Shown: one piece after another, positions 1,965-63,695 of the stretch
Layout: each line of letters begins with the position of its first letter
How positions within the stretch are numbered: position 1 is the first letter of the stretch
DNA from: Spartobacteria bacterium
GTDB lineage: Bacteria > Verrucomicrobiota > Verrucomicrobiia > Chthoniobacterales > UBA6821
Length of the DNA: 64,000 bases
NCBI GenBank assembly: GCA_947471565.1
Contig: CANIVT010000005.1
Span: 9,014-73,013, forward strand
Direction: 5' to 3'
Translations under genes and position numbers: made by a program
Notes under the pieces: model-generated
Database searches by the model: none
Seen by the model: only the letters and a program-made list of their open reading frames with translations
What the model was told of the DNA's origin: nothing

Positions 1965-1992
1965 CTTTATCCCTTTCATCCCCTTCATCCCT
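1965..1992 (+). repeat. short-period pyrimidine-rich repeat (ctttatcc ctttcatcc ccttcatcc ct) abutting the nadA start
   Basis: Read directly from the sequence. It translates as FIPFIPFIP if the track start at 1927 is used. Confidence 0.8.
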
Positions 1993-2928
1993 GTGAGTAA
2001 CACCACCGATCTGCTCGCCGAGATCCTGCGCCTGAAGAAGAAACGGAACGCCGTCATTCTAGCGCACAATTACCAGATCAAGGAGATCCAGGATGTCGCC
2101 GACCATGTCGGCGATTCGCTGGGCCTGAGTCAAAGGGCCGCGGAGACGGATGCCGACATCATTGTCTTCTGCGGGGTCCACTTCATGGGGGAGACCGCGA
2201 AAATCCTCAATCCCGGCAAGACAGTGGTCATCCCCGACCTTGACGCCGGATGTTCCCTCTCGGATTCCTGCCCCGCTGACAAACTGGAAGCCTTCCTCGA
2301 GAAGCACGCCGCAAAGAACTACTTTGTTATCGCCTACATCAATTGCAGCGCAGGGGTGAAGGCCTTGGCCGATGTCATCTGCACCAGCGGCAATGCGGTG
2401 AAGATCGTCGAGGCCGCGCCGAAGGAAAGACCGATCCTGTTTGTCCCAGACCAGAACCTCGGGGCCTGGGTCACCGAGCAGACGGGTCGTCCGATGGATC
2501 TCTGGCAGGGCTCCTGCTACGTCCACATGGAGTACACGCGCGACAGCATCGAGAGAGCCAGGGCGGAGCATCCCGACGCCCTAGTTGTTGCACATCCCGA
2601 GTGTCCACAGGCCGTGCGGTTGCTGGCCGACGAGGTCTGCTCGACCGAAAAAATGGTCTCCTACTGCAAAAATTCCACATCCAAGGCCTTTGTGATCGTC
2701 ACCGAGGACGGAATGCTTCACCGCCTCCGCCGCGAATGCCCGGATAAGGTCTTCATTTCAGGCCCTACCGACACTTGCGCATGCGCAGAATGCCGCTACA
2801 TGAAGCGGAATACCCTCGAGAAGCTCTACCTATGCCTCCGCGATCTGAAGCCCGAGATCACGATGGATGAAGATCTCCGAGTTAAGGCAGAGAAGTCCGT
2901 GCGTCGCATGCTGGAACTCAGCCGCTGA
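1993..2928 (+). CDS. nadA: quinolinate synthase NadA
   Basis: The translation ([40 protein letters not shown]) is NadA-like. The track start at 1927 reads through the tandem repeat, so I prefer the in-frame GTG at 1993. The start remains uncertain. Confidence 0.88.
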
Positions 2929-2932
2929 TTCC

Positions 2933-4213
2933 ATGAATCCCTACCAACCCGGACCCATTTCCTCGGAACTCTGGAACCGGGCGCAGAAGCGTCTTGTCGG
3001 CGGAATCAATTCCCCGGTGAGGGCTTTCCGAGGTGTCGGTGGCGACCCTTTCTTCGTTAATCGGGCCAAGGGCTGCAAAATCTGGGATGTCGATGGTCGC
3101 GAGTATATCGATTTTGTCGGCACTTGGGGACCTGCGATCCTCGGCCACGCGCCTCAGGTAGTCCTCGATGCCGTGACTGAAACGGCACAACACGGCACAA
3201 GCTTCGGGATTCCCAATCCCCTTGAAGTAGAGATGGCTGAGACCATATGCCGGATGGTTCCCTCGGTGGAGAAGGTTCGGATGACCAATTCAGGAACGGA
3301 AGCTGTGCTCGGGGCCATCCGACTCGCCCGCGGATTCACTGGCCGCGACCGGATCGTGAAGTTCGAGGGGTGCTACCATGGTCATGTCGACTCGCTACTC
3401 GTCAAAGCAGGTAGCGGCGCCCTGACCTTAGGCCAACCAGACAGCGCCGGAATCCCGTCTGCCCTCGCCTCGCTCACCACCACCCTCCCCTTCAACGACC
3501 TCCCTGCCCTTCAATCGCTCTTTAAGGAAAAGGGAAAAGAGATTGCCTGCGTCATTATCGAACCCGTCCCCGCAAATGCGGGACTCTACCTGCCCGAACC
3601 GGGCTACCTCGAGGGGATCAGACAACTCTGCAACGAGCATGGTGCTCTGATGATCCTTGACGAAGTGATGACCGGCTTCCGACTTGCACCAGGGGGTGCC
3701 CAGGAGGTCTTCGGAATCAACCCCGATCTCACCACCCTCGGCAAGGTCATCGGCGGTGGACTCCCTGTGGGGGCCTTCGGCGGTCGTGCCGACATTATGG
3801 ATTATGTGGCCCCGCTTGGTCCCGTCTATCAGGCCGGCACGCTCTCTGGAAACCCTCTCGCGCTCGCGGCAGGACTCGCCCAACTCAAGGAAATGGAGCG
3901 GATCAACGGGTGGAAGCTCCTTGAAGAACTTGGAAACTCCATGGAGGCCTTAGTAGGCGCAATGATCAAAGGAAAGCCCTACACCTTTCACCGGATCGGC
4001 TCCATGTTCTGCCTCTATTTTACGGAGGGCCCTGTCCGCCATCTTGCAGAGGCCAAGAAGAGCGATACCTCCGCCTTCGCCCGGTTCTTCCATGGTGCCT
4101 TAAGGGAGGGGATCTATCTGGCTCCTTCTCAGTTCGAAGCCGGATTCCTCTGCACGGCCCACACGACCGTGGATCTGGAAGCAGTCGCAGGAAAACTATC
4201 CTGCTTGCTTTGA
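2933..4213 (+). CDS. hemL: glutamate-1-semialdehyde 2,1-aminomutase
   Basis: N-terminus [17 protein letters not shown].. and a class-III aminotransferase body. The ATG at 2933 follows the nadA stop (2926-2928), whereas the track start at 2867 would overlap nadA. Confidence 0.92.
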
Positions 4214-4288
4214 TCTGACGGCCAGGGTGGGCCGGCCCCCGGATCGCGAGCCTTTCCAGCAGAAGGTCTTTCTGGATAGAGTCTGGCC

Positions 4289-5038
4289 ATGTACAAACTC
4301 GTTCTTATCCGCCATGGCGAAAGCACATGGAACCGCGAAAACCGATTCACAGGCTGGACCGACGTTGATCTCAACGAAAAGGGCCTGGGTGAGGCCAAGG
4401 CCGCCGGCGAACTGCTAAAAAAAGAAGGTTACAGCTTCGACCGCGCCTTTGTGTCGGTCCTGAAGCGTGCTCTGCGCACGCTCTCCATCGTCCTCGACGA
4501 ACTCGACGAACTCTGGATCCCAGTCGATAAGTCCTGGAGGCTCAACGAACGGCACTACGGATCGCTTCAGGGACTGAACAAGGCGGAGACAGCCGCCAAG
4601 TTCGGCGAGGAACAGGTTCTCGTCTGGCGCCGCAGCTACGACATCCCTCCCCCGCCGCTTGAAAAGAGCGATAATCGCTTCCCCGGGAACGATCCCCGCT
4701 ACCAAGGGGTTGCGCAGGACCAGCTTCCTCTCACCGAATGCCTGAAGGACACAGTCGACCGCGTCCTCCCTTACTGGCACGAAGAGATTGCTCCGGCGAT
4801 CAGTCGCGGGGAGAAAGTCCTCGTTGCCGCCCACGGCAATACCCTCCGGGCCATGGTCAAATATCTCGATAACCTGAGCAAGGATGAGGTGCTGGCCTTG
4901 AATATCCCTACCGGTGTCCCTCTCGTCTACGAACTCGATGATCAGCTCAAACCAATCCGCCACTACTACCTAGGCGACCAGGAGAAGATCGCCTCCGCGA
5001 TGGCCGCCGTGGCTTCGCAGGGCAAGGCCCAGAAGTAG
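4289..5038 (+). CDS. gpmA: 2,3-bisphosphoglycerate-dependent phosphoglycerate mutase
   Basis: N-terminal [23 protein letters not shown] and the length (249 aa) are typical of GpmA. Confidence 0.95.
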
Positions 5039-5048
5039 TCCCCGGATC

Positions 5049-6899
5049 ATGCCCATCGGATACCAGACCCCCACTGCTTTCATGAATTCCAGCGAGGGTA
5101 CCGGTGCGGCGACGCTGAAGACCCGAGCCGAGGTTTCCTCTGCAGACACCTGGGATCTCACCCCGATTTTTCCGGGAGACGACGCATGGGAAGCGGAGTT
5201 TGAAGGTCTTGGCGGGCGCTATGTCGGGATCACCGCGCTACGCGGAACACTCGGACGCAGCGCCGCGGATCTCGCTGCCGTGATGGCATTCGAGACCTCA
5301 CTCGACCGCTCCACGGAACGACTCGGACAGTATGCATCCCTGCGCGTCTCGGAGGATAGCTCCCATGCCTCGGCACTCGACCGAGAGGGGCGCTTCTCGT
5401 CGCTGTGCGCCAAAATCAGCGAGGCCTGTTCCTGGGTGGCCCCTGAAATTCAGAGGATCCCTGACGAAACATTCACTGATTTCCTCGAAGACCCCGTCCT
5501 GGCCGATTGGAAGATTTCCCTTCTAAGAATTCGCCGCCTCAAGCCCCACATCCTCGGCAACGCTGAGGAGCGCCTTATCTCACTGGCCATGCCGTCGCTT
5601 GGGGGTCACCACGAGACGTTCTCCCAACTAACCAATGTCGACATGACCTTCGGCAAGATCACCGACGACAGGGGCCAGGAGGTGGAACTCACCCAGAGCA
5701 GCTTCTCCTCCCTGCTCCAGCGACCCGACCGGGGCGTTAGGAAGGCAGCTTTTGAAAAGTTCTACGCGGAGTTTGATGATCACAAGTTCACACTCGCAAG
5801 CGCTCTTTCCAGCTCAGTGAAAGCGGATGTGTTCCTATCCCGCGCCCGGAACTATCCCTCGGCCCGCGAGGCCTCCCTCTTCCCCGACAAAGTCCCTGTC
5901 AGCGTCTACGACAACTTGATCTCGGCCGTCCGTTCCCGCCTGCCCGTCCTGCACGGCTACTATGCCCTTCGGCAGCGGATCTTCAACCTTCCCGACCTCC
6001 ATGTCTATGACACCTATGCGCCGATGGTCGCGGCGGTGCAGACTGAGGTCGTTTTCGACGAGGCGACCGAGATGGTCCTTCGATCCCTTGCCCCGCTTGG
6101 TGAGGAATATGTCACGATCCTCGGGCGCGGTCTCCAAGAAGAGCGCTGGTGCGACCGGTACGAGAACAAGGGTAAGCGCAGCGGCGCCTTCTCTTACGGT
6201 ACCTATCAGGCTCCTCCCTACATCCTGATGAATTATAAGAAGGATGTCTTCTCCGACATCTACACGCTGGCGCACGAGGCCGGCCACTCGATGCATACCT
6301 GGTACGCCCGCCGGGCTCAGAGCTTCCAGAACTATCACTATCCGATCTTCCTCGCCGAGGTGGCCTCGACCTTCAACGAGATCCTGCTCACCGAGCACCT
6401 GCTGGCCTCGACTCAGGACCGATCCATGCGCGCCTACCTGATCAACCGTCAGGTCGACGATCTCCGCGGGACGCTCTTCCGTCAGACCATGTTCGCGGAG
6501 TTCGAGAAACTCACGCACGAGGCGGAGGAATCGGGTGCCGCACTCACGTTGGAAAGCTTCCGCACACTGTACCGTGGACTGCTCGATGACTACTTCGGGC
6601 CAGGCGTGACAATCGATCCCGAACTGGAGTTGGAATGCCTGCGCATTCCGCACTTCTACAGTGCCTTCTACGTTTACAAATATGCCACGGGCATCTCCGC
6701 CGCCATCACGCTCGCAGACGGCGTCCTGAAGAGTGGGCAAACCGAACGCTACTTCGGATTTCTCTCAAGCGGCGGTTCGAAGTTTCCGATTGAGACGTTG
6801 GTAGAGGCAGGTGTCGACATGAACTCCCCCGCGCCGGTCAACGCAGCACTGGATCTCTTCGAGCGCAGGGTGGCCGAACTGGAGGAGCTTCTTTCGTAA
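5049..6899 (+). CDS. pepF: oligoendopeptidase F (M3B family metallopeptidase)
   Basis: 616 aa with the zinc motif HEAGHSMH and PepF-like overall architecture. Confidence 0.88.
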   Translation: MPIGYQTPTAFMNSSEGTGAATLKTRAEVSSADTWDLTPIFPGDDAWEAEFEGLGGRYVGITALRGTLGRSAADLAAVMAFETSLDRSTERLGQYASLRVSEDSSHASALDREGRFSSLCAKISEACSWVAPEIQRIPDETFTDFLEDPVLADWKISLLRIRRLKPHILGNAEERLISLAMPSLGGHHETFSQLTNVDMTFGKITDDRGQEVELTQSSFSSLLQRPDRGVRKAAFEKFYAEFDDHKFTLASALSSSVKADVFLSRARNYPSAREASLFPDKVPVSVYDNLISAVRSRLPVLHGYYALRQRIFNLPDLHVYDTYAPMVAAVQTEVVFDEATEMVLRSLAPLGEEYVTILGRGLQEERWCDRYENKGKRSGAFSYGTYQAPPYILMNYKKDVFSDIYTLAHEAGHSMHTWYARRAQSFQNYHYPIFLAEVASTFNEILLTEHLLASTQDRSMRAYLINRQVDDLRGTLFRQTMFAEFEKLTHEAEESGAALTLESFRTLYRGLLDDYFGPGVTIDPELELECLRIPHFYSAFYVYKYATGISAAITLADGVLKSGQTERYFGFLSSGGSKFPIETLVEAGVDMNSPAPVNAALDLFERRVAELEELLS

Positions 6900-6921
6900 G
6901 GAAAACGAAGGGAAAGTCGCC

Positions 6922-8115: not shown

Positions 8116-8127
8116 CCTCCAACCACC

Positions 8128-8613
8128 ATGTCCACACCACTCCAAGTCGGCGACAAAGCTCCTTCCTTCACCACCAACGCCGTCGGCACCGAGTACGGTT
8201 CCGGCACTGCACTCAAACTTACGGATCTCAAGGGGGCTCCCGTCGTTCTCTATTTTTATCCGAAGGACGACACACCGGGATGCACCACTCAAGCCTGCGG
8301 CATACGGGATGCCTGGAAAGAGATCAAGGCCTCTGGCGCGCGTCTGTTTGGCGTGAGCATCGATACGGTGAAGTCTCACGAGAAATTTATCGTTAAGTTC
8401 GACCTCCCCTTCCCCCTGCTCACCGACCCCGAAAAGGCGATCGTCGAGGCCTATGGGGTCTGGGTCGAAAAGTCGATGTACGGAAAGAAGTATATGGGAA
8501 CGGAACGAACCACCTTCGTCATCGATTCAAAGGGCAAAATCGCCGCTATCTTCCCAAAAGTAAAACCTGCCGAACATGCGGACCTCGTGCTCAAGGCTCT
8601 GAAGGAACTCTAG
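8128..8613 (+). CDS. bcp: thioredoxin-dependent peroxiredoxin Bcp
   Basis: 161 aa with the motif YFYPKDDTPGCTTQAC, characteristic of Bcp/PrxQ. Confidence 0.9.
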   Translation: MSTPLQVGDKAPSFTTNAVGTEYGSGTALKLTDLKGAPVVLYFYPKDDTPGCTTQACGIRDAWKEIKASGARLFGVSIDTVKSHEKFIVKFDLPFPLLTDPEKAIVEAYGVWVEKSMYGKKYMGTERTTFVIDSKGKIAAIFPKVKPAEHADLVLKALKEL

Positions 8614-8624
8614 AATCCTACCTT

Positions 8625-14544: not shown

Positions 14545-15284
14545 TCCTTGCCTGAACGCGTCCCGCGTGAACTTCCTCCCGAAGGGTCGATCACGAGCGT
14601 GACCTCTCCCCGGGGAGGATGATCCTGATAATAGGCCGAAAGGAGGCCCGGACTACCCTGCCGGTATTCCTCGTGGATCTTAGTCAACTCGCGGCATACC
14701 GAGAGAAGGGAATCGGGCATGATGACAGCCAGATCGGCAAGACAATCGCAGAGCCGGTGCGGTGACTCAAAGTAGACCGAGGTCATTCCAAGAGCAGCGG
14801 CTTTTTTGAGTTCATTCCGCCTTCCCGATCCGGAGGACGGGAGAAATCCACCGAAGAAAAACGGGACGGGAGGGAGTCCGCTCCCTGCAAGGGCCGTCGT
14901 CACCGCACTAGCACCCGGCAGGACAGTGTAGGCGATCCCCTCGGCGACGCAGGCCCTCACCAGGCGGAACCCGGGGTCGCTGACCGAGGGAGTTCCGGCA
15001 TCGGTGACAAGCACGAGTTTCTCCCCACCTCTCAGACGCGCGATCAGTTCCGGAAGACGCCTTTCCTCGTTGTGCTCGTGGAAGCTGACGAGAGGCTTGC
15101 GGGTTTCCAGATGAGCCAGCAAAAGCCCCGCGCGCCGGGTATCTTCGGCGATCACGCCGTCACAGTTTCTGAGAGCCTCAGCGGCCCGGAAGGTCAGATC
15201 CCCGAGGTTCCCGATCGGAGTGCAGAGAAGCGTTAGCGGCGGAAGCCCTTGCTCACTCTCCGGTTGCAGTCCTTCAGCCTTCAA
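14505..15284 (-). CDS. rsmI: 16S rRNA (cytidine1402-2'-O)-methyltransferase
   Basis: TPIGNLGDLTFRA N-terminal motif and a tetrapyrrole-methylase fold. The start is a TTG inside a heptamer repeat. The 3' end overlaps accA by 40 nt, convergently. Confidence 0.83.
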   Translation of the reverse strand: MKAEGLQPESEQGLPPLTLLCTPIGNLGDLTFRAAEALRNCDGVIAEDTRRAGLLLAHLETRKPLVSFHEHNEERRLPELIARLRGGEKLVLVTDAGTPSVSDPGFRLVRACVAEGIAYTVLPGASAVTTALAGSGLPPVPFFFGGFLPSSGSGRRNELKKAAALGMTSVYFESPHRLCDCLADLAVIMPDSLLSVCRELTKIHEEYRQGSPGLLSAYYQDHPPRGEVTLVIDPSGGSSRGTRSGKDHSEKTPIPRNLA

Positions 15285-15298
15285 CCTTAAGCCCTCAG
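15271..15298 (+). repeat. heptamer repeat cttcagc cttcaac cttaagc cctcagc
   Basis: Read directly. It spans the rsmI start and the rsmI/lptE-like intergenic gap. Confidence 0.8.
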
Positions 15299-15308
15299 CG
15301 TGTTCGGC

Positions 15309-17784: not shown

Positions 17785-17820
17785 CTTGTCACTTTTTAAC
17801 CTTCCACTTTTTTAACTTCC
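17785..17820 (+). repeat. short-period repeat cttgtcac tttttaac cttccac ttttttaac ttcc
   Basis: Read directly. It overlaps the 3' end of the RND permease gene (tail GEVKKVEG). Confidence 0.7.
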
Positions 17821-27095: not shown

Positions 27096-27328
27096 GCCGA
27101 TACCATACCGGACTCTCACGTAGATCTCCAGAAACGAATCTGGGCAGACAAAGAATGGGACCGTGGCCACAAGATGCACAGAAGGCACAGGAAAATGAAT
27201 CGCTCAGAGGCTCTCTTCCCGTCCATGTTTCCCTCTTGTGCTTTCTCGTGCCTTTTGTGGCTTCATCATCGCTCCATCAGTTGCTTCATCCGGACTTTGG
27301 GGAGAGAATGATGGTTTACCTTTCCCCT

Positions 27329-27360
27329 GACTTTTCACCTTTCACTTTTCACCGTTTTCC
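27329..27360 (+). repeat. short-period repeat gacttttcac ctttcac ttttcac cgttttcc just upstream of the uvrB start
   Basis: Read directly. It ends 9 nt before the uvrB ATG. Confidence 0.8.
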
Positions 27361-27369
27361 TCCTCCCTC

Positions 27370-29517: not shown

Positions 29518-29523
29518 ATTTCT

Positions 29524-29560
29524 CCCTTCAGCCTTCCTCCTTCAACCTTTAGCCTTTTCC
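29524..29560 (+). repeat. heptamer repeat cccttcagcc ttcctcc ttcaacc tttagcc ttttcc just upstream of the holA start
   Basis: Read directly. It ends 2 nt before the holA ATG. Confidence 0.8.
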
Positions 29561-29562
29561 CG

Positions 29563-30714: not shown

Positions 30715-30809
30715 GCGTTCGGATGACTCGCGCAGAGGCTCGGAGATCGCGGATGAAAAAAGACTCAAGAATCCCAAGGAGATAGGTTTTGCTGTTTTTG
30801 GGAATTTTT

Positions 30810-30833
30810 CCTGAATTCCTGAATTCCTGATTC
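30810..30833 (+). repeat. 8-bp tandem repeat cctgaatt x2 plus a degenerate copy cctgattc
   Basis: Read directly. Confidence 0.85.
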
Positions 30834-30841
30834 ATCCCCCC

Positions 30842-30911
30842 CTCTGCGCCTCTGCGCCTCCGCGCGAGAATGCCTCCCTCAGCTCCTCCTCTGCGTCTTG
30901 GCGCGAGAATT
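30842..30911 (+). repeat. cargo-less copies of the GxxExxY-cassette terminal repeat
   Basis: 30842-30872 (ctctgcgcctctgcgcctccgcgcgagaatg) matches the reverse complement of 46488-46518 at 29/31 positions. A degenerate second copy at 30884-30911 ends in the same gcgcgagaat. Confidence 0.75.
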
Positions 30912-33528: not shown

Positions 33529-33647
33529 AAGTGAAAGGGTTAGAAGGGTTACAACGGAACTGAAGGATAGCATCCACAGGTCCTCATATCGGAGAGGAGG
33601 AATTCCCCATCCCGTTTCACCTTGTAACGATTCTAACCTTTTTAACC
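33527..33647. repeat. imperfect inverted repeat built from 9-bp units (gttagaagg / ccttttaac type) between convergent genes
   Basis: Left arm gggttagaagggttacaacgg versus the reverse complement of the right arm aggttagaatcgttacaaggtg (17/21 match). The spacer is about 55 nt. Confidence 0.7.
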
Positions 33648-37315: not shown

Positions 37316-37331
37316 AGGGGAAAGGTGGATA

Positions 37332-37409
37332 GACTGAAGGCTGTTAGGCTATTGGGAGCTGAAGGACTGAAGCCGGACGGGGATTTCCCCGGCCTAACAG
37401 TCTTCAGCC
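37332..37409. repeat. inverted repeat containing cttcag heptamers between the aminotransferase gene and ileS
   Basis: gactgaaggctgttaggc (37332-37349) matches the reverse complement of gcctaacagtcttcagcc (37392-37409) at 16/18 positions. Confidence 0.7.
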
Positions 37410-37424
37410 TTCAGCCTAAAAACC

Positions 37425-38585: not shown

Positions 38586-38702
38586 GTTAGAAAGGTTGAA
38601 GAGTTAAAAAGTGGCCATCCACCCTTTTAACCCTTTTAACCCTTTTAACCCTTTTAACCCTTTTAACCCTTTTAACCCTTTTAACCCTTTTAACCCTTCA
38701 AC
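38586..38702. repeat. 9-bp tandem array (cccttttaa x8 perfect plus 1 degenerate) preceded by three inverted degenerate units
   Basis: Perfect copies at 38622-38693 and a degenerate copy at 38694-38702. Inverted units gttagaaag gttgaagag ttaaaaagt lie at 38586-38612. The centre is ccat at 38615-38618. Confidence 0.9.
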
Positions 38703-44022: not shown

Positions 44023-44038
44023 CGGCGGAAAAATGCAG

Positions 44039-44120
44039 AATGAAAAATGAAAAATGAAAAAACAGAATCTCCAAGGAACACTTCTCCTTCATTTCCTGTT
44101 TTCCTGATTTTTTGATTCAT
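44039..44120. repeat. heptamer arrays in inverted arrangement (aatgaaa x3 ... tttcctg ttttcctg attttttg attcat)
   Basis: Read directly. It fills the gap between the aldo/keto reductase stop and the uvrA start. Confidence 0.75.
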
Positions 44121-44132
44121 TACGTTGGGAAC

Positions 44133-46414: not shown

Positions 46415-46487
46415 TCCGTAAGCCTCGACGGACGGGGCGGAGCCGCGCAAAACAAAAACGCCATCACGGTCAATTCCTGCATAAAAT

Positions 46488-46947
46488 GATTCTCGCGCGG
46501 AGGCGCGGAGGCGCAGAGATTAGAGATGGAATGAAGGAAAACGACATCGGAACAAAGATTCTGAGTGCTGCTATTGCTGTTCATCGGGAACTGGGCCCCG
46601 GTCTCCTTGAAAGCGTTTACGAGGTGGTTTTGGCCCGTGAATTGTCGGATGCAGGATTACGGGTGGAACGTCAGGTCCCCATATCGATCTCCTACAAAGG
46701 TCTTCAATTTGAAGAGGGATTCCGTGCTGACCTAATCGTCGAGCAGAAAGTTTTGCTCGAACTCAAATCCGTGGAGCAAATCGCAGCATCTCACAAGAAG
46801 CAGATACAGACCTATTTGAGTTTGAGCGGCCTCAAGCTTGGTTGCCTCCTGAATTTCGGAGATGCCGTTCTGAAAAACGGAATTACTCGTTGCGTGAACG
46901 GACTTCAGGAAAATTTCTCCGCGCCTCCGCGTCTCCGCGCGAAAATC
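46488..46947. mobile_element. candidate TIR-bounded cassette carrying a GxxExxY gene
   Basis: 31-bp arms at 46488-46518 and 46917-46947 are inverted and match at 28/31 positions. A single small ORF lies between them. A cargo-less near-identical arm sits at 30842-30872. No transposase or target-site duplication was seen. Confidence 0.5.
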
Positions 46948-46968
46948 TCTCGGAGTAACTTTACCTGA
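46531..46968 (+). CDS. GxxExxY protein (PD-(D/E)XK nuclease-like superfamily)
   Basis: GPGLLESVY contains the G-x-x-E-x-x-Y signature, followed by FRADLIVEQKVLLELKSVEQ (a D..E-x-K-like core). The ATG at 46531 is preferred over the track start, which reads through the left repeat. The C-terminal tail reads through the right repeat. Confidence 0.85.
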   Translation: MKENDIGTKILSAAIAVHRELGPGLLESVYEVVLARELSDAGLRVERQVPISISYKGLQFEEGFRADLIVEQKVLLELKSVEQIAASHKKQIQTYLSLSGLKLGCLLNFGDAVLKNGITRCVNGLQENFSAPPRLRAKISRSNFT

Positions 46969-46969: not shown

Positions 46970-48025
46970 ATGGCTTCCCGCAAAAGCTACGACGAGCGCT
47001 TCATGAGGATCGCCCTTACCGAGGCGGCAAAGGGTCTCGATCGCACCACCCCGAACCCCGCTGTAGGTGCGGTTTTGGTTAAGGAGGGCCGTGTTCTCTC
47101 AAAAGGTTATCACCATGCCGCCGGCCTCCCCCATGCCGAGATCGAGGCCATCAGAAAATTGCTCCCTGAGTTTCGCCTTCAGTCTTCAGCCTTCAGTCTT
47201 CAGCCTCACCCGCTTGAGGGCTACACCCTCTACGTGACGCTGGAACCTTGCTCCTCACACGGCAGGACCCCTCCCTGCACGGAAGCGATCATCGCCGCGG
47301 GAATCACACGAGTGGTCTACGGGGCCACCGATCCCGACGAGCGTCACCTGGGGAAAGGAGCCAGAATCCTCCGCAAGGCCGGAATCGAGGTCGTCGACGG
47401 GGTGCTTGCCGACCAATGCAAGGCCTTGAACACGCATTGGAATCACCGCACCGCCTCGGGTATGCCATGGGTGATCGCCAAAGCGGGTCTGTCGCTTGAT
47501 GGCCGAATCGACTCCCCTCCTCACAGGCGCTGGATTACCTCGGTGGCGAGCCGTCGGGAGGCCATGAAACTGCGGGCCTCGGTGGAGGCCATTCTTGTCG
47601 GTGGCGGCACCGTCTGCACCGACGATCCCTCACTCACTGTGAGGGGCATTAAGCTTCCAAAGGGACACTCCCAGCCATGGCGGGTCGTCTGGTCCAAGAG
47701 CGGCAAAGTCCCAAAAAACTGCAAGCTGCTCACCGATGCTCACCGTGACCGCACGATCATCCTGAAAGGAATGTCTCTTCGCGCCGCGCTCAAGGAACTG
47801 GCACACCGGGGCATCTCCAGCGTTCTCATCGAGGGTGGCGGCCAGACTCACGCAGAAGCCTTCAAAGGGAAACTTGTCGACGAGGTCCGCTTCTTCATCG
47901 CACCCGTCATCCAGGGCGGGAAAGTTCCGGTCGTCAGCGGCCAGATCCCCCCGTCCCGACTCAATGACGTGACCTGCAAAAAAATCGGCTCTGACCTGAT
48001 GATCTCGGGACTGGTCAGGAAGTGA
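46970..48025 (+). CDS. ribD: bifunctional riboflavin biosynthesis deaminase/reductase
   Basis: PHAEIEAI and TLEPCSSHGRTPPC deaminase motifs plus a C-terminal reductase domain. Contains an in-frame repeat-derived insert; see the findings. Confidence 0.92.
   Translation: MASRKSYDERFMRIALTEAAKGLDRTTPNPAVGAVLVKEGRVLSKGYHHAAGLPHAEIEAIRKLLPEFRLQSSAFSLQPHPLEGYTLYVTLEPCSSHGRTPPCTEAIIAAGITRVVYGATDPDERHLGKGARILRKAGIEVVDGVLADQCKALNTHWNHRTASGMPWVIAKAGLSLDGRIDSPPHRRWITSVASRREAMKLRASVEAILVGGGTVCTDDPSLTVRGIKLPKGHSQPWRVVWSKSGKVPKNCKLLTDAHRDRTIILKGMSLRAALKELAHRGISSVLIEGGGQTHAEAFKGKLVDEVRFFIAPVIQGGKVPVVSGQIPPSRLNDVTCKKIGSDLMISGLVRK
47176..47205 (+). repeat. heptamer repeat (cttcagt cttcagc) x2 inside the ribD coding sequence
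   Basis: Read directly. It translates in frame as RLQSSAFSLQP. Confidence 0.9.
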
Positions 48026-55757: not shown

Positions 55758-55777
55758 CAAACAATCTCTTCGGAGAC

Positions 55778-57582: not shown

Positions 57583-57584
57583 GA

Positions 57585-60125
57585 ATGAATCGGTTCTTAC
57601 TCTTCCTACTATTTCCGGCCCTTCCAGTACTGAAGGCTACAACTACCAATGTACCCCAGGTTGTCATTTCGGAGACTTCCATATCTGCAGTTCCGGAAGA
57701 GGCCTCGACAAGAACCGGCTCCGCAGGCGGACTCTCCGGGGGAGCACTTCTGGAAATAGGCGGGCTGAAGCCGGATGGCAAACCGGTTGCCGAGGCTCTG
57801 GTCCTCCCTCTCTTCGATGCTACTGGAATAAATGCAACATGGAAAAAAACCTCCCTGACTGAAGCTTGTGCTTGGTCCGCAACTGCACAGAACGGTGACG
57901 AGATCATTCTGGCCGGAGGATTGGTTGGTGATACACCCTCGGCCAGAGTGATCGCCTACCGGTGGCACGGGACAAACGTTGTCAACCGTGATCTGCCCAA
58001 TCTTCCATCTCCGCTGGCTGGTGCCGGAGCGGCGGTGTTGGGCGGCAGTCTTTACGTTGTCGGCGGCATTCATTCCATCGGTTCGGGAGAAGCCAGCAAG
58101 GATGTCCTGAAACTGGATCTCCTCTCCTCGAATCCGAAATGGGAGTCACTCCCCCCGATGCCCGGAAGCGGCAAGGTCCTTCCGATGGTAGTAGCCCAGT
58201 ACGACATCCTGGAGGTCATCGGAGGCAGATCTCCAGATGGGCAAGGCCGATTCGTTGCCAGCAAGGATGTTCTCATTTACAGACCCAAGCCTGCTGAGGG
58301 CACGACTTTCGTGGGGTGGAGCAGGGTAGCGGATTCTCCCGTTGCCATGGCCGCCGGAAAGGCCGCCCCCTCCGGACAGGCCCACACGATCATCTTCGGG
58401 GCCGATACCACGCCCGTGACGGAGAACCCCTTCTCTCTCAACGCAGCGAACGTCTCCCCGACCCTGCTGTTCCATGCCGTGACCGATGCCTGGGTGGAGG
58501 CGGGAGCCGCTCTCAGTTTTCCCAATCCATTGATGGCGAAAAACCCCTTGGCTAAAAATCCTGAAGGATCCCTTCTCCTCTTTGGTGCCAAGGGGATGAC
58601 TCACCCCCTGCAGGCTAGCACCCCGCGCACTACTCGGAATCTTAACTGGGCGGACTACTTGATGATCCTCTTCTACTTCTTCTTTATCGGGTACATCGGC
58701 TACCACTTCCGCCACCAGAAGTCAGCGGCTGAATACTCACTCGGCAACCGACAGACCCCGTGGTGGGCGGCCGGTATCAGCATGTTCGCGACGGCAGCCA
58801 GCGCGATCAGCTTCATGGCTGTTCCTGCTCTCGCCTTCGCTTCGAATCTCGTCTGGCTCTTTCCCCTGATCGTCTTCATCCCAGTCTATTTCTTCCAGTC
58901 GCGGATTACCTATCCAATCCTGCGCCGCCTTGAGATCACCTCGACCTTTGAGTATCTGGAGAGGCGTTTTGACACGTCGCTCCGGCTGATTGCAAGCTTC
59001 CTCCAGATCGTCTTCCAGACCTTCGGACGTTCGAGCATTGTCCTGGTACTCCCTTCCATCGCAATCTCCGCGACAACCGGTCTTGATGTCCGGTGGAGCG
59101 TCATCATCATGGGTGTCCTGACGACCATCTACACCGCGGCGGGCGGATTCGAAGCGGTCACGTGGACTTTGGTCTTCCAAGGCGTGCTCAAGGCTCTGGC
59201 ACCGATCGCCGTGATCTGGATCTGCATTGCGGGTTTACCCGGAGGATTGCGTGAGTTCTTCGCGACGAATGCCTCGCACCACAAATTCGATTTTGCGATC
59301 CTCGGCTGGGACGTCGCCTTCCCCCTTGTGTGGGTGATGCTGCTGAGGGTTTTCCTCGAGCAGACCATCTGGCAGGCTGGCGATCAGGCTGTGATCCAGC
59401 GTGTTTTCGCCTCCAAGGACGATGAGATCCGTAAGGTGACGGCGATGAACTTCTCCTGCGGCGCCTTCATCGGAATCCTCGTAACGGCAATGGGCTTGGC
59501 GATCTTCGCCTACTTTCACGCCCATCCTGAGAAGTTCGACGCAGCCTCCACAATCGACCAGATCGTCCCGCTTTTTGTGATACAGGGTATGCCCCACGGA
59601 GCCGTGGGCGTAGTGATCGCTGCGATCTTTGCCAGTGCCATGGCCACCGTAGCCGGCGCAATGAACAGTGTCGCCACCATCTTTACCGTAGACTTCTACG
59701 AACGCTGGTTCCCCAATGCTGAGGACAAGGCTAACCTCCGCATGATGCGTCTCAGCACGATTGGGACTGGAGTAGCCGCCACGGTGATCGCCCTCTGGCT
59801 CACCACGCTGAACCTAAAATCCATTATGGTTACCTGGAACATTGTTTCCTCGCTGCTGGGCGGAGGGATTGTCGGCATCTTTGCACTGGGAATGTTTAGT
59901 ACCAGGGCCAATGCGGGCGGTGCGGTCTGTGGGGCAATCCTGAGCATTGTACTTGGCCTCTATGTGAAGTTTTTCACGTCCATCCATTGGGCTTTCCTTC
60001 TCCCGATCCTGATCTTCTCCGCAATGATCATCGGATATATCTGCAGCTTCTTCTTCCGCTCAGCACCCAAGAACCTGACCGGTCTGACGATCTTCCATCA
60101 GGTCCGCAAAAGCCAAACTCTTTAA
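57585..60125 (+). CDS. fusion protein: N-terminal secreted Kelch/beta-propeller (NanM/YjhT-mutarotase-like) domain plus C-terminal sodium:solute symporter (SSS/SLC5)
   Basis: Signal peptide MNRFLLFLLFPALPVLKA, then Kelch-like repeats (GGSLYVVGG, ILEVIGG). From about aa 370 there is a 13-14-TM SSS body (WWAAGISMFATAASAISFMAVPALAF). The ATG at 57585 follows the SGNH stop. Confidence 0.8.
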   Translation: MNRFLLFLLFPALPVLKATTTNVPQVVISETSISAVPEEASTRTGSAGGLSGGALLEIGGLKPDGKPVAEALVLPLFDATGINATWKKTSLTEACAWSATAQNGDEIILAGGLVGDTPSARVIAYRWHGTNVVNRDLPNLPSPLAGAGAAVLGGSLYVVGGIHSIGSGEASKDVLKLDLLSSNPKWESLPPMPGSGKVLPMVVAQYDILEVIGGRSPDGQGRFVASKDVLIYRPKPAEGTTFVGWSRVADSPVAMAAGKAAPSGQAHTIIFGADTTPVTENPFSLNAANVSPTLLFHAVTDAWVEAGAALSFPNPLMAKNPLAKNPEGSLLLFGAKGMTHPLQASTPRTTRNLNWADYLMILFYFFFIGYIGYHFRHQKSAAEYSLGNRQTPWWAAGISMFATAASAISFMAVPALAFASNLVWLFPLIVFIPVYFFQSRITYPILRRLEITSTFEYLERRFDTSLRLIASFLQIVFQTFGRSSIVLVLPSIAISATTGLDVRWSVIIMGVLTTIYTAAGGFEAVTWTLVFQGVLKALAPIAVIWICIAGLPGGLREFFATNASHHKFDFAILGWDVAFPLVWVMLLRVFLEQTIWQAGDQAVIQRVFASKDDEIRKVTAMNFSCGAFIGILVTAMGLAIFAYFHAHPEKFDAASTIDQIVPLFVIQGMPHGAVGVVIAAIFASAMATVAGAMNSVATIFTVDFYERWFPNAEDKANLRMMRLSTIGTGVAATVIALWLTTLNLKSIMVTWNIVSSLLGGGIVGIFALGMFSTRANAGGAVCGAILSIVLGLYVKFFTSIHWAFLLPILIFSAMIIGYICSFFFRSAPKNLTGLTIFHQVRKSQTL

Positions 60126-60136
60126 TCAGCACATTG

Positions 60137-61951
60137 TTATTTGGGAAAAATGACTAGTAGTTCCCTCTCCTCGGGACGCAACTGGGTGGGGTCGATCCCG
60201 ATTTCCAGATTTTTGGCTTCTGCTTGCTGGCGATTGGCCTTCAGGACGGCGCAACGGATTGCCCGCCACGGCGCCGCAGCTCCGGTCCAGTCGATCTCCT
60301 TGTCCCGATAAATCTCCAGGGCACCGGCTGCATCTCCGGTCCTGAGACGTCCGAGTGCGGCCGTGCTCAGGCGGGTCAGGGCGTTAGGCTGAGCTAGGAA
60401 CAACTTCTCCGCCTTGTCTGCCGCCGATGCCACATCATCCTTTGCAAGGAGGCGGAGATAAGTCAGATCACAGGCGACATCCTGATTCTCAGGCAGGGCG
60501 ACCTCGAGTTCCTCATAGAAAGGAATCAGTTTTTTGGCCGAGGCGTCGCGGGGTTGGCAGCGGATCAGCCCCACCAACCCGTTCACCTTGGTCTCCTCCC
60601 TATCAGCCATTTCACGGTAGGTCCGGGCGGCACGTTCGTAGGCGCCGATCTGCTCCTCGTATCCCGCGATATAGGCCAGCGTCCCTGGTTTCTCGAGATG
60701 CAGCGAGGCCCCGACATTCCTCCACTCCTCCTCGGCCAAGGAGACCTCGCCGTTCATCATGGCAATCCTGGCGAGATAGAGATGCCTCACCGCATCCTGA
60801 ATGCCAGACCCTGCGGGGGTTGCGAGCATACGTGGGATGTCCTTCAAATCGCCCAGGGTGCTCTTGGCATCCAAAACAACAAGCAACCAGTCAGTGTCGT
60901 TGGCCGGCCGGTCGGTTCCCGCCATCGCGATCACTTCCTTCTGGCATCCCCTGCCGTTCAGCCAGCGGGCCAGATCGAGTTGAGCATCCCTGGGTGCCAA
61001 CCGACGTGCCTTGACCAGTCTGGCCACGACCGCTTCCTTCGTGGAGGGATCTGCCTTGATCGCAAGATCGGCGGCCATCAGCTCATCCGACGGTTTTCCT
61101 CCGGGCAACGATTTGAAGACCCCGGACAAGCTCATGGCCTCGGCGCCGGCATTCGGAATGGAGATCCCCTGCGGAGGGGCTAGCAGGAGCTGGGCCATGA
61201 TCCTCCAGGCAGCGATCGAAGCCGCATTCTTTTCAGAAATCACGCCGTGCAGCAGATCCAGGATGCGCGCGGTATCCGGAGCATCCCTCAACGAGAGAAG
61301 ATCAAGCGCAGCCTGGATCCGGAGATAACCGGCATCATCCCGTGAGGGGGCCTCGCCCGCACGGCGGATGCAAAAATCGGCCGCCTCCAGAAAACTGTGA
61401 TCCTTCGCTGTCAGGGAAGCCTCGAGCAACGAGCGTCTCAGAAATCCCTTCTTACCCGACTTAAGGGAAAGCAATCCCAGAGCCTCTCGCGCAGCATCTC
61501 GTTGGTCCTTCATCGCCGAGATCTCGGCGATCCCCAGCAACTCCTGATCATCGGACCCTCCCACCTTCATTCTGGCGATGAGCTTCTCAAGATAAGTTTC
61601 ATCACCGGCACGGGCATTGTAGAGCTCCACGGCATGTTGGATGTGCAGACTACCGGGTGCCAAGGCCAGTGCCTGCTTGAGGAGAGAGACACCCCTCTCG
61701 GAATCCCCGATTGCGAAGGCCTCGCCAGACTTCCCCATGAGAGAGGAGGCCCTCCACTCCTTGAGGCCACGATACAAGGGTACGAGACACAGGAGGACGA
61801 TCAGCGCCAGAGCCAGACGCAGCATTCTCTTTCTCTTGCGCGGATCCTTGAACCACGAATCCTGAACAGGCGGCCGCAGTGACTCCTCCGAATAATCGGG
61901 AAGCTCCTCGCCATTCTGATGGAACGGACTTTCCGGATTCCTTTGGGTCAT
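60137..61951 (-). CDS. single-pass membrane protein with a large TPR-like helical-repeat domain
   Basis: One TM helix (LALALIVLLCLVPLY), then an Ala/Leu-rich helical-repeat region. It lies immediately downstream of the exosortase gene on the same strand. Confidence 0.5.
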   Translation of the reverse strand: MTQRNPESPFHQNGEELPDYSEESLRPPVQDSWFKDPRKRKRMLRLALALIVLLCLVPLYRGLKEWRASSLMGKSGEAFAIGDSERGVSLLKQALALAPGSLHIQHAVELYNARAGDETYLEKLIARMKVGGSDDQELLGIAEISAMKDQRDAAREALGLLSLKSGKKGFLRRSLLEASLTAKDHSFLEAADFCIRRAGEAPSRDDAGYLRIQAALDLLSLRDAPDTARILDLLHGVISEKNAASIAAWRIMAQLLLAPPQGISIPNAGAEAMSLSGVFKSLPGGKPSDELMAADLAIKADPSTKEAVVARLVKARRLAPRDAQLDLARWLNGRGCQKEVIAMAGTDRPANDTDWLLVVLDAKSTLGDLKDIPRMLATPAGSGIQDAVRHLYLARIAMMNGEVSLAEEEWRNVGASLHLEKPGTLAYIAGYEEQIGAYERAARTYREMADREETKVNGLVGLIRCQPRDASAKKLIPFYEELEVALPENQDVACDLTYLRLLAKDDVASAADKAEKLFLAQPNALTRLSTAALGRLRTGDAAGALEIYRDKEIDWTGAAAPWRAIRCAVLKANRQQAEAKNLEIGIDPTQLRPEERELLVIFPK

Positions 61952-61973
61952 GAAATTGGGGATGAGTGATTGA

Positions 61974-63560
61974 TCAACGCTTCATCGGAGCCGCGATCAT
62001 CTCCACCGTCAATGCTCCTTGCAGGTAGCGATCGAGGGCTTCACCTGCGGATTGGGCATCGGGAAGATTCCAGAAGGCCACCTCAATCATCCTTTGGCCC
62101 CTGTTTCTTCTGCCCTCCAGAACGGAGCGCAGGCGCCCTCGCAGAGAATCGTTAAGCTGGCTTGTCATCCCGCTCCCAGTCCTACCCTCCTCGATCAGGG
62201 CCTGAAAAACATAAACGGGGACTCCCCTCTGCTCAAAAAACCAAGATCGGAACGGAATCGTGATTCCCTCCGAGGAATAATCACGGGATGGGAGGGGCCT
62301 GATCAGCTTCATCCCAAAATTTGAGAGACAGACTTCGGGACGGTGCATCGTGACGGCCTGCTGCGATGTCCTTCCCGCCGGCCAGCGAAAGTAGAACGCC
62401 TGGCCGCCCGCATTGTCGCCGATGAGCCATCTCTCGGAAAACCCCTCGGGATAAAAAAGCATCTTCAGTGTCTGCGGGGGGATCACCACACGGGATGCTC
62501 CCCGTTCTGTGCCGATAGGGTGCAGGAACCATTGACGCAGGCCGGATGTGGCCGATTCGTGCAGGCGATACCAGAGTTCCGAACCGAGCGAGGCCGTGAT
62601 CAGGAGAGAGAAAGCGACGAGGAAAATGGCTAAACATCCCCTCCCTGATTGAGCATCGGCAGCCATTCCGGCACGGGAGGCAGATGGAACGACCACACCC
62701 TTCCACCGATAGGCGAAGACCACCACAGTCCCAAAGGTCACCAGAAGGACTAGGATCCCGGCCGGATCATGCCAGGATGAAACGGCCGCGATTCCCTGAC
62801 GCGAGGCCACCACGGCAAGGAGTGAACTGCGGATGATATTTCCCACTAGCGCGGCCCCGATCGCGACCCCGATCAGCAGCACTCTCCTCCAGGCCGCAAG
62901 ACGCAGGATTTCCCCGAAAAAGAGCGAGACCATGATCCCGCTCTGGAGCGAACGAACACCGCTACATGCCTCCTCCACGCCCAGTACGCCCGAAGGGATC
63001 ACGATCAGGTTTCCCTGCCGCAGAGCCTCGTAGCCCAACCAATGAAGGATCTCCAAGGTGGCGGCGGCATTCCACGACATCAACCCGCCCATGACCGACT
63101 GCTCGAAATTCCTCGGCCAAGGGACCGCGATCAGGAAGAAGCATAAGGGAAAGCCAAAGTGTCGCAGCCAGGACCAGCCACCCACCAGATAGAGCGTGGT
63201 CAGACTGATTGTCACAGCCATCAGGCATGCGAGAAGCCCTATGGGGCGCCAATCGGGATTGGCTTCGGCCAGCGGGATCGTGAGCGCAAGGATCAGACTC
63301 GCCGCGATCAGCACAGCACCCCCCGCTCCCAAGGAAAACCCAAGGCAAGAATTCCGGGAAGGGCTGTCCGGCATCCGCTTGAAGAACAGCCCTATCATCA
63401 GCAGGGGAACCACCATGCCGTAGCCGTATTGGGGATCGATCCTCCAGTCCCCCCAGAGCATCCGAATCACGACAAACCAGCCCAGCCCGACCAAAGCTGC
63501 TGGCGCGCCCCAATCACGGATATTCCTGCCGACTACGGACATACCCCATTCTCGGGTCAA
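61974..63560 (-). CDS. exosortase fused to a C-terminal EpsI-family domain
   Basis: Polytopic N-terminal half with exosortase catalytic signatures (EEACSGVRSLQ, NIIRSSLL, SWHDPAG). The C-terminal domain carries the EpsI-like motif MHRPEVCLSNFGMKL. Confidence 0.85.
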   Translation of the reverse strand: MTREWGMSVVGRNIRDWGAPAALVGLGWFVVIRMLWGDWRIDPQYGYGMVVPLLMIGLFFKRMPDSPSRNSCLGFSLGAGGAVLIAASLILALTIPLAEANPDWRPIGLLACLMAVTISLTTLYLVGGWSWLRHFGFPLCFFLIAVPWPRNFEQSVMGGLMSWNAAATLEILHWLGYEALRQGNLIVIPSGVLGVEEACSGVRSLQSGIMVSLFFGEILRLAAWRRVLLIGVAIGAALVGNIIRSSLLAVVASRQGIAAVSSWHDPAGILVLLVTFGTVVVFAYRWKGVVVPSASRAGMAADAQSGRGCLAIFLVAFSLLITASLGSELWYRLHESATSGLRQWFLHPIGTERGASRVVIPPQTLKMLFYPEGFSERWLIGDNAGGQAFYFRWPAGRTSQQAVTMHRPEVCLSNFGMKLIRPLPSRDYSSEGITIPFRSWFFEQRGVPVYVFQALIEEGRTGSGMTSQLNDSLRGRLRSVLEGRRNRGQRMIEVAFWNLPDAQSAGEALDRYLQGALTVEMIAAPMKR

Positions 63561-63669
63561 TGGTGCGGGGAATCAAGGACTCCCCTACCCATGGGACAAG
63601 CCCATGGGGGCTTGTGAAGTATCAACTTCTCCACGCGTTCTTTCTCTCGTTCACGCCTCCCAGCTCCAC

Positions 63670-63695
63670 GTTGTAACCTTGTAACAGTTGCAACC
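63670..63695 (+). repeat. short-period repeat gttgtaac cttgtaac agttgcaac c
   Basis: Read directly. It is the same unit type as at 33620-33647. Confidence 0.7.

Follow-up and report, generated by a model that had tools for sequence, protein, structure and literature searches.

The intergenic DNA of a 64,000-nucleotide stretch of the Spartobacteria bacterium assembly GCA_947471565.1 (contig CANIVT010000005.1, positions 9,014 to 73,013; hereafter the window) carries tandem arrays of 7-9 nucleotide (nt) units, C/T-rich on one strand, which lie close to start codons or pair with inverted, purine-rich copies. These arrays are a real and strongly non-random variant of a kind of repeat that is already known and still unexplained. 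We read them as heptanucleotide-class long simple sequence repeats (LSSRs) that are made and homogenised by slippage and, we infer, have been selected as leaders independent of a Shine-Dalgarno (SD) sequence and as intercistronic hairpins, a reading to which we give roughly even chances. An earlier note on this DNA had proposed one genome-specific family resembling repetitive extragenic palindromic (REP) sequences and bacterial interspersed mosaic elements (BIMEs), built on a shared core and not recognisable as any described element. The host is a freshwater member of the Chthoniobacterales/“Spartobacteria” (Verrucomicrobiota) with a G+C content of ~59%.

The gene map, drawn from long open reading frames (ORFs), Pfam matches and gene calls on matching public contigs, leaves 3,667 bases (5.7%) of the window intergenic and ~60 kb coding. 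For the enrichment analysis, arrays were defined as Tandem Repeats Finder (TRF) calls of period 7-9 with at least 2.8 copies, overlapping calls being merged (n = 12), and the null model consisted of 200 dinucleotide-preserving shuffles of the same intergenic regions. Eight arrays were intergenic, against a shuffle mean of 0.04 and a maximum of 1, an excess far beyond chance. Coding DNA held four arrays in ~60 kb against 0.37 expected, two of these being the flanks of a small ORF, and the two-unit motif YTTYANY x2 was matched 10 times at 6 loci (0.20 expected). Nine contigs from independent sequencing runs show 100% identity across the arrays at 29.5, 30.8, 33.5 and 37.3 kb, hence the arrays are no assembly artefact. 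All eleven arrays listed in the earlier note were found where it placed them, most of them recovered by TRF, and its general picture of non-random, intergenic arrays with kinship at the level of the unit and a link to gene boundaries is supported. Related arrays absent from its list lie at 30808-30869, 46488-46521 and 46912-46947, together with the purine-rich partner of the nadA array at 1899-1923. As an independent check we inspected a further 8 kb of this scaffold that lies outside the window. Of its five spacers, one has the 50 nt before an ATG wholly occupied by a quasi-periodic C/T tract in the sense direction.

Units were classified in the window arrays and 29 related loci, each oriented to its C/T-rich strand (51 arrays; loci of relatives are given L-numbers, such as L010). 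Class I consists of TTCA-core heptamers (CTTCAGC, CTTCATC, TTTCACY, TTTTTCA) and accounts for 24 of the 51 arrays, with TTCA 5.8-fold over composition. Class II consists of TAAC-core 8-9-mers (CCTTTTAAC, CCTTGTAAC, TTCTAAC), and class III of CTCCGCGC-type 8-mers, which bound a GxxExxY nuclease gene cassette as its terminal inverted repeats; CTTTATCCC and CCCAACT represent minor groups. The single shared core CTT..A(A/G)C suggested previously therefore does not hold, as it merges at least two unit classes, the TTCA-core heptamers and the TAAC-core 8-9-mers. Nor do the arrays make up one REP/BIME-like family specific to this genome: every locus uses a unit of its own, and similarity between non-orthologous loci ends at the array edge. 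The 9-mer CTTTATCCC/GGGATAAAG was also observed at three non-orthologous loci (window 1965-1992, L010 11178-11204 and the spacer between convergent DUF5069 genes in L020), a recurrence which suggests that the clade may draw on a limited vocabulary of repeat units.

The arrays occur in two settings (Table 1). In the first, unpaired C/T-rich tracts, apparently 5′ leaders, reach SD-less starts (uvrB and holA), and both have a minimum free energy (MFE) of 0 kcal/mol. In the second, inverted pairs in the order 5′-purine arm...pyrimidine arm-3′ give long hairpins, which either bridge a stop codon and the start that follows it (nadA, ileS, aminotransferase) or lie between convergent genes. This polarity is kept, on either strand, at all six paired loci of the window, and for gene pairs in the same direction the stem begins 2-8 nt past the upstream stop and ends 0-16 nt before the start (87 nt for the aminotransferase). 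The empirical rule is that the purine-rich version follows stops and the pyrimidine-rich version precedes starts. For the six genes at which pyrimidine-rich arrays had been described near starts, the C/T-rich strand is indeed the sense strand, at distances of 0 nt for nadA (if it starts at GTG 1993), 2 nt for holA, 5 nt for uvrA, 16 nt for ileS and 87 nt for the aminotransferase, with the uvrB tract running to -1. The arrays at 15271, 17785 and 63670 are purine-rich in the sense direction and follow stops. Folds are significant at five loci (1.9, 30.8, 33.5, 37.3 and 38.6 kb; z = -2.6 to -5.0). Of the long palindromes claimed earlier, those at 33.5, 37.3 and 38.6 kb are thus confirmed (z = -2.9 to -5.0), whereas the 44.0-kb spacer upstream of uvrA has the paired layout yet folds no better than shuffles (z = 0.2).

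The genes of the window mostly have no SD sequence: SD-like 4-mers occur at positions -18 to -4 in 10 of 47 genes compared with 18% of random windows, so there is no excess. Positions -1 to -3 of the 47 start codons were also observed to be 45-49% C against a 30% background; start-codon context in Bacteroidia is reported to be A-rich, unlike the C-rich context in this window. Verrucomicrobiales have been reported to lack SD sequences globally (PMC10798248).

Comparison of orthologous loci shows that some of these arrays are kept with their genes. All 20 relatives with 71-97% holA identity, which like the other holA relatives are metagenome-assembled genomes labelled Spartobacteria, Chthoniobacterales or Verrucomicrobiota, possess a period-7 C/T array in the 40-50 nt before the holA ATG, and the array is kept in six relatives that have a gene other than uvrB upstream; at 46-52% holA identity, five further relatives have no array before holA. 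The unit varies by lineage (CTTCAGC, CTTCATC, TTTCACY, CTTTCAG), and the heptads (n = 74) share the consensus Y-T-T-C-A-K-C, with a 7-nt interval between TTYA anchors in 40 of 56 cases, and a G content of 5.9%. Between the window and L010 the holA leader differs at 3 of 42 positions (93% identity; binomial 6e-8), while divergence at four-fold degenerate sites (d4) is 0.455 over the first 900 nt of holA and 0.34-0.43 over the whole of uvrB and holA. A second, independent comparison, of L015, L016 and L018 with L028, gave 5 of 42 differences at a d4 of 0.5 (~1e-7). The non-array spacer before acrB is only ~55-60% identical between the window and L010. Judged from these two independent comparisons, which comprise three locus pairs, the holA leader is far more conserved than synonymous sites and is under local purifying selection. 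The overall pattern at holA, long stasis followed by wholesale unit turnover, is on the same alignments the signature of slippage-driven concerted evolution acting on a constrained element.

Arrays recur likewise at uvrB and ileS, and do not at acrB, the sigma factor gene, recD2 or the Mg-chelatase-like gene. Upstream of uvrB, the alignment shows a block TTGCnn-N17-GAtAaT, kept in ~12 of 16 sequences, followed by GGTTTAC and then by the variable array. Conservation of this block points to a promoter and transcription start, which would place the array in the transcribed 5′ leader; a scan of the uvrB spacer with a strict sigma-70 consensus found no promoter. At ileS, most of the 11 relatives have a long hairpin in the upstream spacer, with z ranging from -1.4 to -7.2 and reaching -2 or lower in nine; complementary array units particular to the lineage make up the outer stem in 7 of the 11, such as GGCUGAAGGCU/AGUCUUCAGCC, GGGAUGAAGAA/UUCUUCAUCCC and GGACUAUUGGG/CCCAAUAGUCC. 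In the distant Chthoniobacterales (46-52% holA identity) we also observed adjacent inverted pairs of 7-8-nt arrays, at 5433-5506 in L031 and 16977-17083 in L034, which use quite different units (CGCAAAGC/TTTGCGAC and ATTGCGG/AATCCGC, respectively); hairpins with tandem-repeat arms thus seem, from these loci, to be general to the order.

Copies are also found inside a gene. An alignment of 120 RibD homologues showed that the loop between the HAE and PCxxC motifs has no insert, an insert of ~13 amino acids (aa) that is a translated CTTCAGY array, or one of ~30 aa. Insert DNA was compared for the window (47176-47205), L035 (10251-10282), L036 (10203-10303), L037 (10226-10256) and L160 (about 6200-6300). 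The 30-aa insert of L160 is a complete in-frame hairpin with a purine arm and a pyrimidine arm (GAGTTGGAAG...CTTCCAACTC, z = -3.3). A metagenome scan with a single RibD protein returned no match. Palindromic repeats tolerated in frame within protein-coding genes are known as Rickettsia palindromic elements (RPEs), which the ribD inserts resemble, and mycobacterial interspersed repetitive units (MIRUs) are intercistronic tandem repeats that adjoin the stop and start codons on either side and are proposed to couple translation. RPE and MIRU units measure 40-150 bp and have a conserved sequence, whereas the units here are 7-9 nt.

The arrays reach well beyond this genome. An exact search with three copies of the commonest unit, (CTTCAGC)3, hit at least 120 metagenome contigs, 80 of which were examined and span 34-69% G+C, hence the phenomenon is not genome-specific as had been supposed. 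On the 80 contigs, other arrays are of period 7 in 183 of ~270 cases and occur at 0.33 further arrays per kb, and many adjacent inverted pairs are present, ~10 of 12 in purine-then-pyrimidine order. Long-ORF starts fall within 15 nt downstream of an array 7 times on the C/T strand and 2 times on the purine strand (9 versus 4 within 30 nt).

We propose the following mechanism. Replication slippage would create the short-period arrays and keep homogenising their units, with no single mobile element being copied. A C/T leader in the sense direction, consisting of Y-T-T-C-A-K-C heptads with ~6% G and almost no ATG, GTG or TTG, is predicted not to fold, and would serve as an open landing site for SD-independent binding of the 30S subunit, probably via ribosomal protein S1 or another binder of single-stranded RNA. 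An inverted pair would act as a 3′-end, stability or termination hairpin, and within operons a ribosome terminating at the upstream stop could melt the base of the stem and so free the downstream start. The roles first suggested for the arrays, as 5′-untranslated elements and as REP-like or terminator-like hairpins, are the most plausible ones. In a consensus scan for Rho-independent terminators over 25-45 kb, neither the array hairpins nor any gene end gave a match; a non-canonical terminator role is possible given the U-rich 3′ arms at 38.6 and 33.6 kb. No Rfam 15 family matched the window at the gathering threshold.

Several observations weigh against such roles. Leader status and hairpin role, like transcription of the arrays into leader RNA and every functional step above, are readings of sequence. 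Arrays and hairpins persist in frame in ribD, where a leader or terminator role is impossible, and positional persistence with unit turnover is therefore no proof of function by itself. Gain and loss can be fast: the holA units of L020 and L021 are wholly different at a d4 of 0.31, the uvrB array is present in most relatives but absent in the closest one, L010, the uvrA array is lineage-specific (absent upstream of uvrA in L035 and L037), and the 38.6-kb element is a lineage-specific insertion of ~170 nt where the relatives' spacer has ~30 nt. In the window, the six unpaired arrays all have their C/T-rich version on the + strand, the one that GC skew also shows to be richer in C, as a replication-strand bias would produce, although counter-examples exist among the relatives (L014 1347, L017 6399, L023 1164). 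The orientation bias towards starts on metagenome contigs is only modest and at most suggestive, being drawn from crude ORF heuristics on many short contigs. Sense and antisense folding energies and G-U counts of the 11 ileS hairpins show no consistent asymmetry, so the fold comparison cannot separate an RNA hairpin from a DNA-level palindrome, and template-switch (“quasipalindrome”) mutation could keep the arms alike without selection. The two roles also partly conflict, because pairing within a hairpin would close a pyrimidine arm as a landing site.

These points lead to the main rival explanation, in which the arrays are a neutral by-product: slippage DNA is tolerated in spacers, harmful versions (new starts, SD-like runs, frame breaks) are purged and template switching homogenises the arms. 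The fast gain, loss and unit swaps between close relatives, and the in-frame ribD copies at a place where no RNA-level role is expected, are what it predicts, and the dominance of period 7 on many unrelated metagenome contigs fits the slippage preference proposed by Mrazek et al. 2007 (PMC4679880). The short arrays also show no copy-number variation among the nine assemblies. A neutral origin does not easily account, however, for a holA leader that is 93% identical while four-fold sites differ by 34-46%, a result with which the second comparison agrees, nor for an array that is kept in 20 lineages and stays with the gene when its neighbour changes, nor for recurrence at holA, uvrB and ileS and not at acrB, the sigma factor gene or recD2. 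We therefore regard neutrality as rather unlikely.

Conservation of the leader at the nucleotide level hints at a sequence-specific binder. The heptads could be multivalent sites for one trans factor, either a cold-shock-domain, S1-domain or KH protein or Rho acting on C-rich, G-poor RNA, with uvrA, uvrB, holA, ileS and nadA as its regulon. This would explain why leader conservation exceeds what “G-poor and unstructured” needs, why the heptad consensus YTTCAKC has a strict 7-nt spacing and why a few units (CTTCAGC, CTTCATC, CTTTATCCC) are reused at non-orthologous loci, and an equivalent proposal has been made for the TAACTGA repeats discussed below (PMC4679880). However, unit diversity within one genome (TTTCACY, CTTCAGC, TTTTTCA and CTTTATCCC at different loci) argues against a single specific binder, wholesale replacement of the unit between lineages at the same gene is hard to square with one, and no candidate factor emerged, hence we consider such a platform unlikely. 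A bolder form of the selected-leader reading would join both ideas: in SD-less Verrucomicrobia, Y-T-T-C-A-K-C arrays would be a selected, register-free platform for ribosome recruitment or regulation, multivalent for S1, a cold-shock-domain/KH protein or Rho, and the purine-to-pyrimidine hairpins from stop to start would couple cistrons, the whole being a start-selection system kept at holA, uvrB and ileS across a family-level clade while the unit drifts by concerted evolution. In this full form we think it improbable.

The REP/BIME-like family of the earlier note leads to a further rival, a mobile family that spreads by transposition, either REP/BIME-like or resembling miniature inverted-repeat transposable elements (MITEs). 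Enterobacterial REP/BIME sequences are extragenic imperfect palindromes found inside operons and at operon ends; they probably stabilise the mRNA upstream and can affect neighbouring translation; REPs have one ~35 nt consensus over hundreds of copies and are mobilised by REP-associated tyrosine transposases (RAYTs). Some features of the arrays resemble mobile DNA, including the discrete ~170 nt insertion at 38.6 kb directly after a stop codon, the entire hairpin modules in frame in ribD and, above all, class III, where CTCCGCGC arrays truly form the terminal inverted repeats of a cassette; lineages differ in whether it occupies the same sites, and an ORF-less copy exists. The cassette gene (ORF 46486-46968) belongs to the GxxExxY / PD-(D/E)XK_3 family (Pfam PF13366, 4.6e-40; TIGR04256, 2.2e-40). 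An intact cassette lies after holA in L024 (8714-9166) and before ribD in L036 (9538-9983), and it is absent at the pre-ribD site in L035 and L037. The ORF-less copy at 30727-30869 follows holA in the window, at the position of the intact L024 cassette, and the right arm of its hairpin (30841-30869) shares 96% identity with the cassette repeat at 46491-46518. Its features suggest that the cassette is a small gene unit, either mobile or RNA-processed; with 34-bp terminal inverted repeats around the GxxExxY gene and an ORF-less copy, it is the class that compares with MITEs.

The other two classes behave differently. Short-word blastn of every module against ~1 Mb of related and metagenome loci matched tandem units only, similarity beyond the units being found for the class III cassette repeats alone, and we therefore rejected REP/MITE membership for classes I and II. 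Non-orthologous copies of the TTCA and TAAC classes share only their repeat units and have no common loop or ends, unit and length are particular to each locus, and neither terminal inverted repeats nor near-identical copies, as in MITEs, were seen. A single ~35-40 nt palindrome in many copies, as expected of REP/BIME, was not found in the ~1 Mb, where loops and flanks never matched, and there is no RAYT (IS200/IS605-like) or other transposase among the Pfam-annotated genes of the window. Stable extragenic hairpins, the remaining REP/BIME property, are present at the five significantly folding loci, with the ribD copy as the non-extragenic exception. As the arms here are locus-specific tandem units, REP/BIME is a functional analogy and not a membership: the hairpin class probably works like REP/BIME, and a mobile family spread by transposition is very unlikely.

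Copy-number change at the arrays could in principle drive phase variation, as contingency loci or promoter-spacing switches. Short tandem units near gene starts are the classical substrate, and the long 9-mer array breaks assemblies. However, the genes concerned (uvrA, uvrB, holA, ileS, nadA) are housekeeping genes, the nine independent assemblies do not differ anywhere in the short arrays, the 9-mer array aside, and the arrays are downstream of the promoter-like block and not between its hexamers, all of which makes phase variation extremely improbable. Three further candidates were also discarded. A conserved “CTTTYCC” box before starts gave 41 matches, mostly coding, and is non-specific; a LexA/SOS operator, uvrA and uvrB being typical SOS genes, is not indicated, as the conserved uvrB block shows no palindromic box; and CRISPR does not apply because the units are contiguous and without spacers. 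CUUCACC / CCUUGUAAC presumably resembles a sequence that could pair with the 3′ region of 16S rRNA; this idea was dropped, that rRNA segment being base-paired.

Table 1. Short-period arrays and associated features in the window, with the strand of each feature.
Feature	Position	Strand	Details
acnA-to-nadA spacer	1889..1992	+	Purine arm 1899-1923 GGATTCACAGGGATAAACGGGATCC pairs with CTTTATCCC x3 (1965-1992), adjoining GTG 1993; TRF
acnA-nadA hairpin	1889-1992	+	Predicted RNA fold -40 kcal/mol, z = -2.6
CCTTCAG x4.1 (as read on + strand)	15271..15299	-	Purine-rich GCTGAAG in sense; fills spacer from lptE to TP_methylase-family methyltransferase gene
Period-15 array	17785..17820	-	Two ~7-8 nt units, CTTTTTAAC/CTTCCAC, over last codons and stop of acrB; purine-rich in sense
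Promoter-like block before uvrB	27281..27320	+	TTGCTT-N17-GAGAAT, then GGTTTACC; alignment of 16 orthologous uvrB upstream regions
Putative uvrB 5′ leader	27329..27369	+	TTTCACY x3, then C/T tract up to ATG 27370; TRF; MFE 0 kcal/mol
uvrB-holA spacer	29518..29562	+	Entire spacer of heptads CTTCAGC/CTTCCTC/CTTCAAC/CTTTAGC, ending 2 nt before ATG 29563; MFE 0
ORF-less hairpin, holA to dodecin gene	30727..30869	+	Class III arms: GCGCAGAG-type 30727-30753 and CCTCTGCG x3 30841-30869; TRF
Hairpin between convergent DUF5069 genes	33529..33647	.	Purine arm 33531-33557 (GGGTTAGAA/GGGTTACAA); pyrimidine arm 33612-33647 (CCTTGTAAC/TTCTAAC/CTTTTTAAC)
Aminotransferase-to-ileS spacer	37316..37424	-	Purine arm GGCTGAAGGCTGAAGACTG (sense) 7 nt past stop; pyrimidine arm CAGCCTTCAGTC ends 16 nt before ATG 37315
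TPR gene-to-aminotransferase spacer	38586..38702	-	TTAAAAGGG x8.7 (sense) from 8 nt past stop, pairs with CACTTTTTAACTCTTCAACCTTTCTAAC (38586-38614); TRF score 156
Aldo-keto reductase-to-uvrA spacer	44023..44132	-	Weak purine arm 44090-44120; TTTTTCA x4.9 (44028-44069, sense) ends 5 nt before ATG 44022; TRF
GxxExxY cassette	46488..46947	+	34-36-bp inverted repeats of three 8-bp units each: 46488-46521 GCGCGGAG type, 46912-46947 CTCCGCGC type
ribD internal array	47176..47205	+	CTTCAGY x4.3 in frame, translated LQSSAFSLQP, in loop between HAE and PCxxC motifs; TRF
Array GTTGTAAC/CTTGTAAC/AGTTGCAAC	63670..63695	-	~18 nt past Bac_transf stop; ~110-130 nt before exosortase start (depending on start call); purine-rich in sense

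Individual loci add some detail to Table 1. For nadA, two start candidates were noted, the public gene call at GTG 1927, with which the array is translated as FIPFIPFIP, and GTG 1993 directly after the array; the Pfam NadA match covers the longer ORF only from residue 32 onwards, and the array may be a leader or an N-terminal extension depending on whether GTG 1993 or GTG 1927 is used. The array at 15271-15299 holds the sole in-frame start (TTG 15284) of the downstream methyltransferase gene and has no significant fold (z = 0.3), nor does the array at 17785-17820 (z = 0.6). The ORF-less hairpin at 30727-30869 encloses TTCCTGAA x3 (30808-30830) and folds at -57.3 kcal/mol (z = -3.4). The hairpin between the DUF5069 genes reaches z = -3.4 on the + strand and -2.9 on the - strand, and the sequence of this spacer is different in every relative. 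The aminotransferase-ileS hairpin folds at -46.3 kcal/mol (z = -5.0) and the hairpin between the TPR gene and the aminotransferase at z = -2.9. Within the latter, one assembly was observed to have a 100-N gap inside the perfect 9-mer array at 38621-38698 (L001 19064-19163) and another contig (L002) ends in it, hence the 8.7 copies are a lower-confidence number. The array at 63670-63695 was missed by TRF at a score of 30. Among the relatives, L011 has class II arrays (GGTTAAAA-type, then TAACTTTT-type) at 3505-3762 that flank a G+C-rich segment of ~190 nt upstream of the promoter-like block of uvrB; this segment contains no convincing ORF and has no Rfam match at E <= 1. A structured RNA missing from the annotation, or a cassette in decay, could account for it.

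Contrary to the initial impression of an undescribed element, repeats of the same kind are on record as LSSRs, as short tandemly repeated repetitive (STRR) sequences of cyanobacteria and as the TAACTGA repeats of Beggiatoaceae (PMC4679880). LSSRs have units of 5-11 nt, heptanucleotides being the commonest, possibly arise by polymerase slippage, are sporadically distributed across phylogeny and favour multiple-of-3 units in coding DNA (Mrazek, Guo and Shah 2007, summarised in PMC4679880; see also PMC4692102). The head-to-tail units seen here, in excess of what composition predicts and dominated by period 7 in relatives and metagenome contigs, are of this class. The 7-nt ribD array is kept in frame by its total length, and while LSSR is a descriptive class without positional rules, the arrays here have a clear relation to stops and starts and a fixed purine-then-pyrimidine polarity. 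The STRR heptamers of Mazel et al. 1990 are reportedly tandem and intergenic, with several unit families per genome; the units CCCCAGT, TTGGTCA and CAACAGT occur in heterocystous cyanobacteria, and we know of no start-codon relation reported for them. Both the phylum (Verrucomicrobiota) and the units differ here, so the arrays are not STRRs.

The closest parallel in layout is the TAACTGA repeat of marine Beggiatoaceae, some Cyanobacteria and Bacteroidetes, a heptamer in 2-6 or more tandem copies that is mostly intergenic (MacGregor 2015, PMC4679880). It is forward-oriented, most often ends 1 nt before SD-less starts, is occasionally found in ORFs and precedes essential genes, and binding of S1, Csp or CsrA has been proposed (PMC4679880). 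Forward arrays near SD-less starts are found here too, at the distances given above for holA, uvrA, nadA and uvrB. The units (CTTCAGC, CTTCATC, TTTCACY, TTTTTCA, CTTTATCCC, CCCTTTTAA) make this a different family with the same architecture: TAACTGA is one unit genome-wide with stops in all frames, whereas many C/T-rich units open in all frames are used here. Inverted purine-pyrimidine hairpin pairs are present here, compared with a single inverted case reported for TAACTGA, and orthologous conservation across a family-level clade is something at which the TAACTGA study did not look. What our analysis adds to the known heptamer repeats is therefore the purine-then-pyrimidine pairing, the conservation among orthologues and the in-frame copies.

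How start codons are chosen in bacteria that ignore the SD sequence, such as the Bacteroidia and, according to PMC10798248, the Verrucomicrobiales, is still an open question, and heptamers abutting starts have been noticed in Beggiatoa and cyanobacteria and never explained. The clade studied here has an advantage over those cases: across dozens of related genomes, arrays are retained at the same genes even though their units are replaced, with measurable purifying selection on parts of them, and the question is therefore testable by comparative genomics. If the arrays are neutral, they would still illustrate cleanly how micro-repeats evolve in concert, even where they are translated as part of an enzyme; if they are part of start selection in SD-less Verrucomicrobia, their significance would rise.

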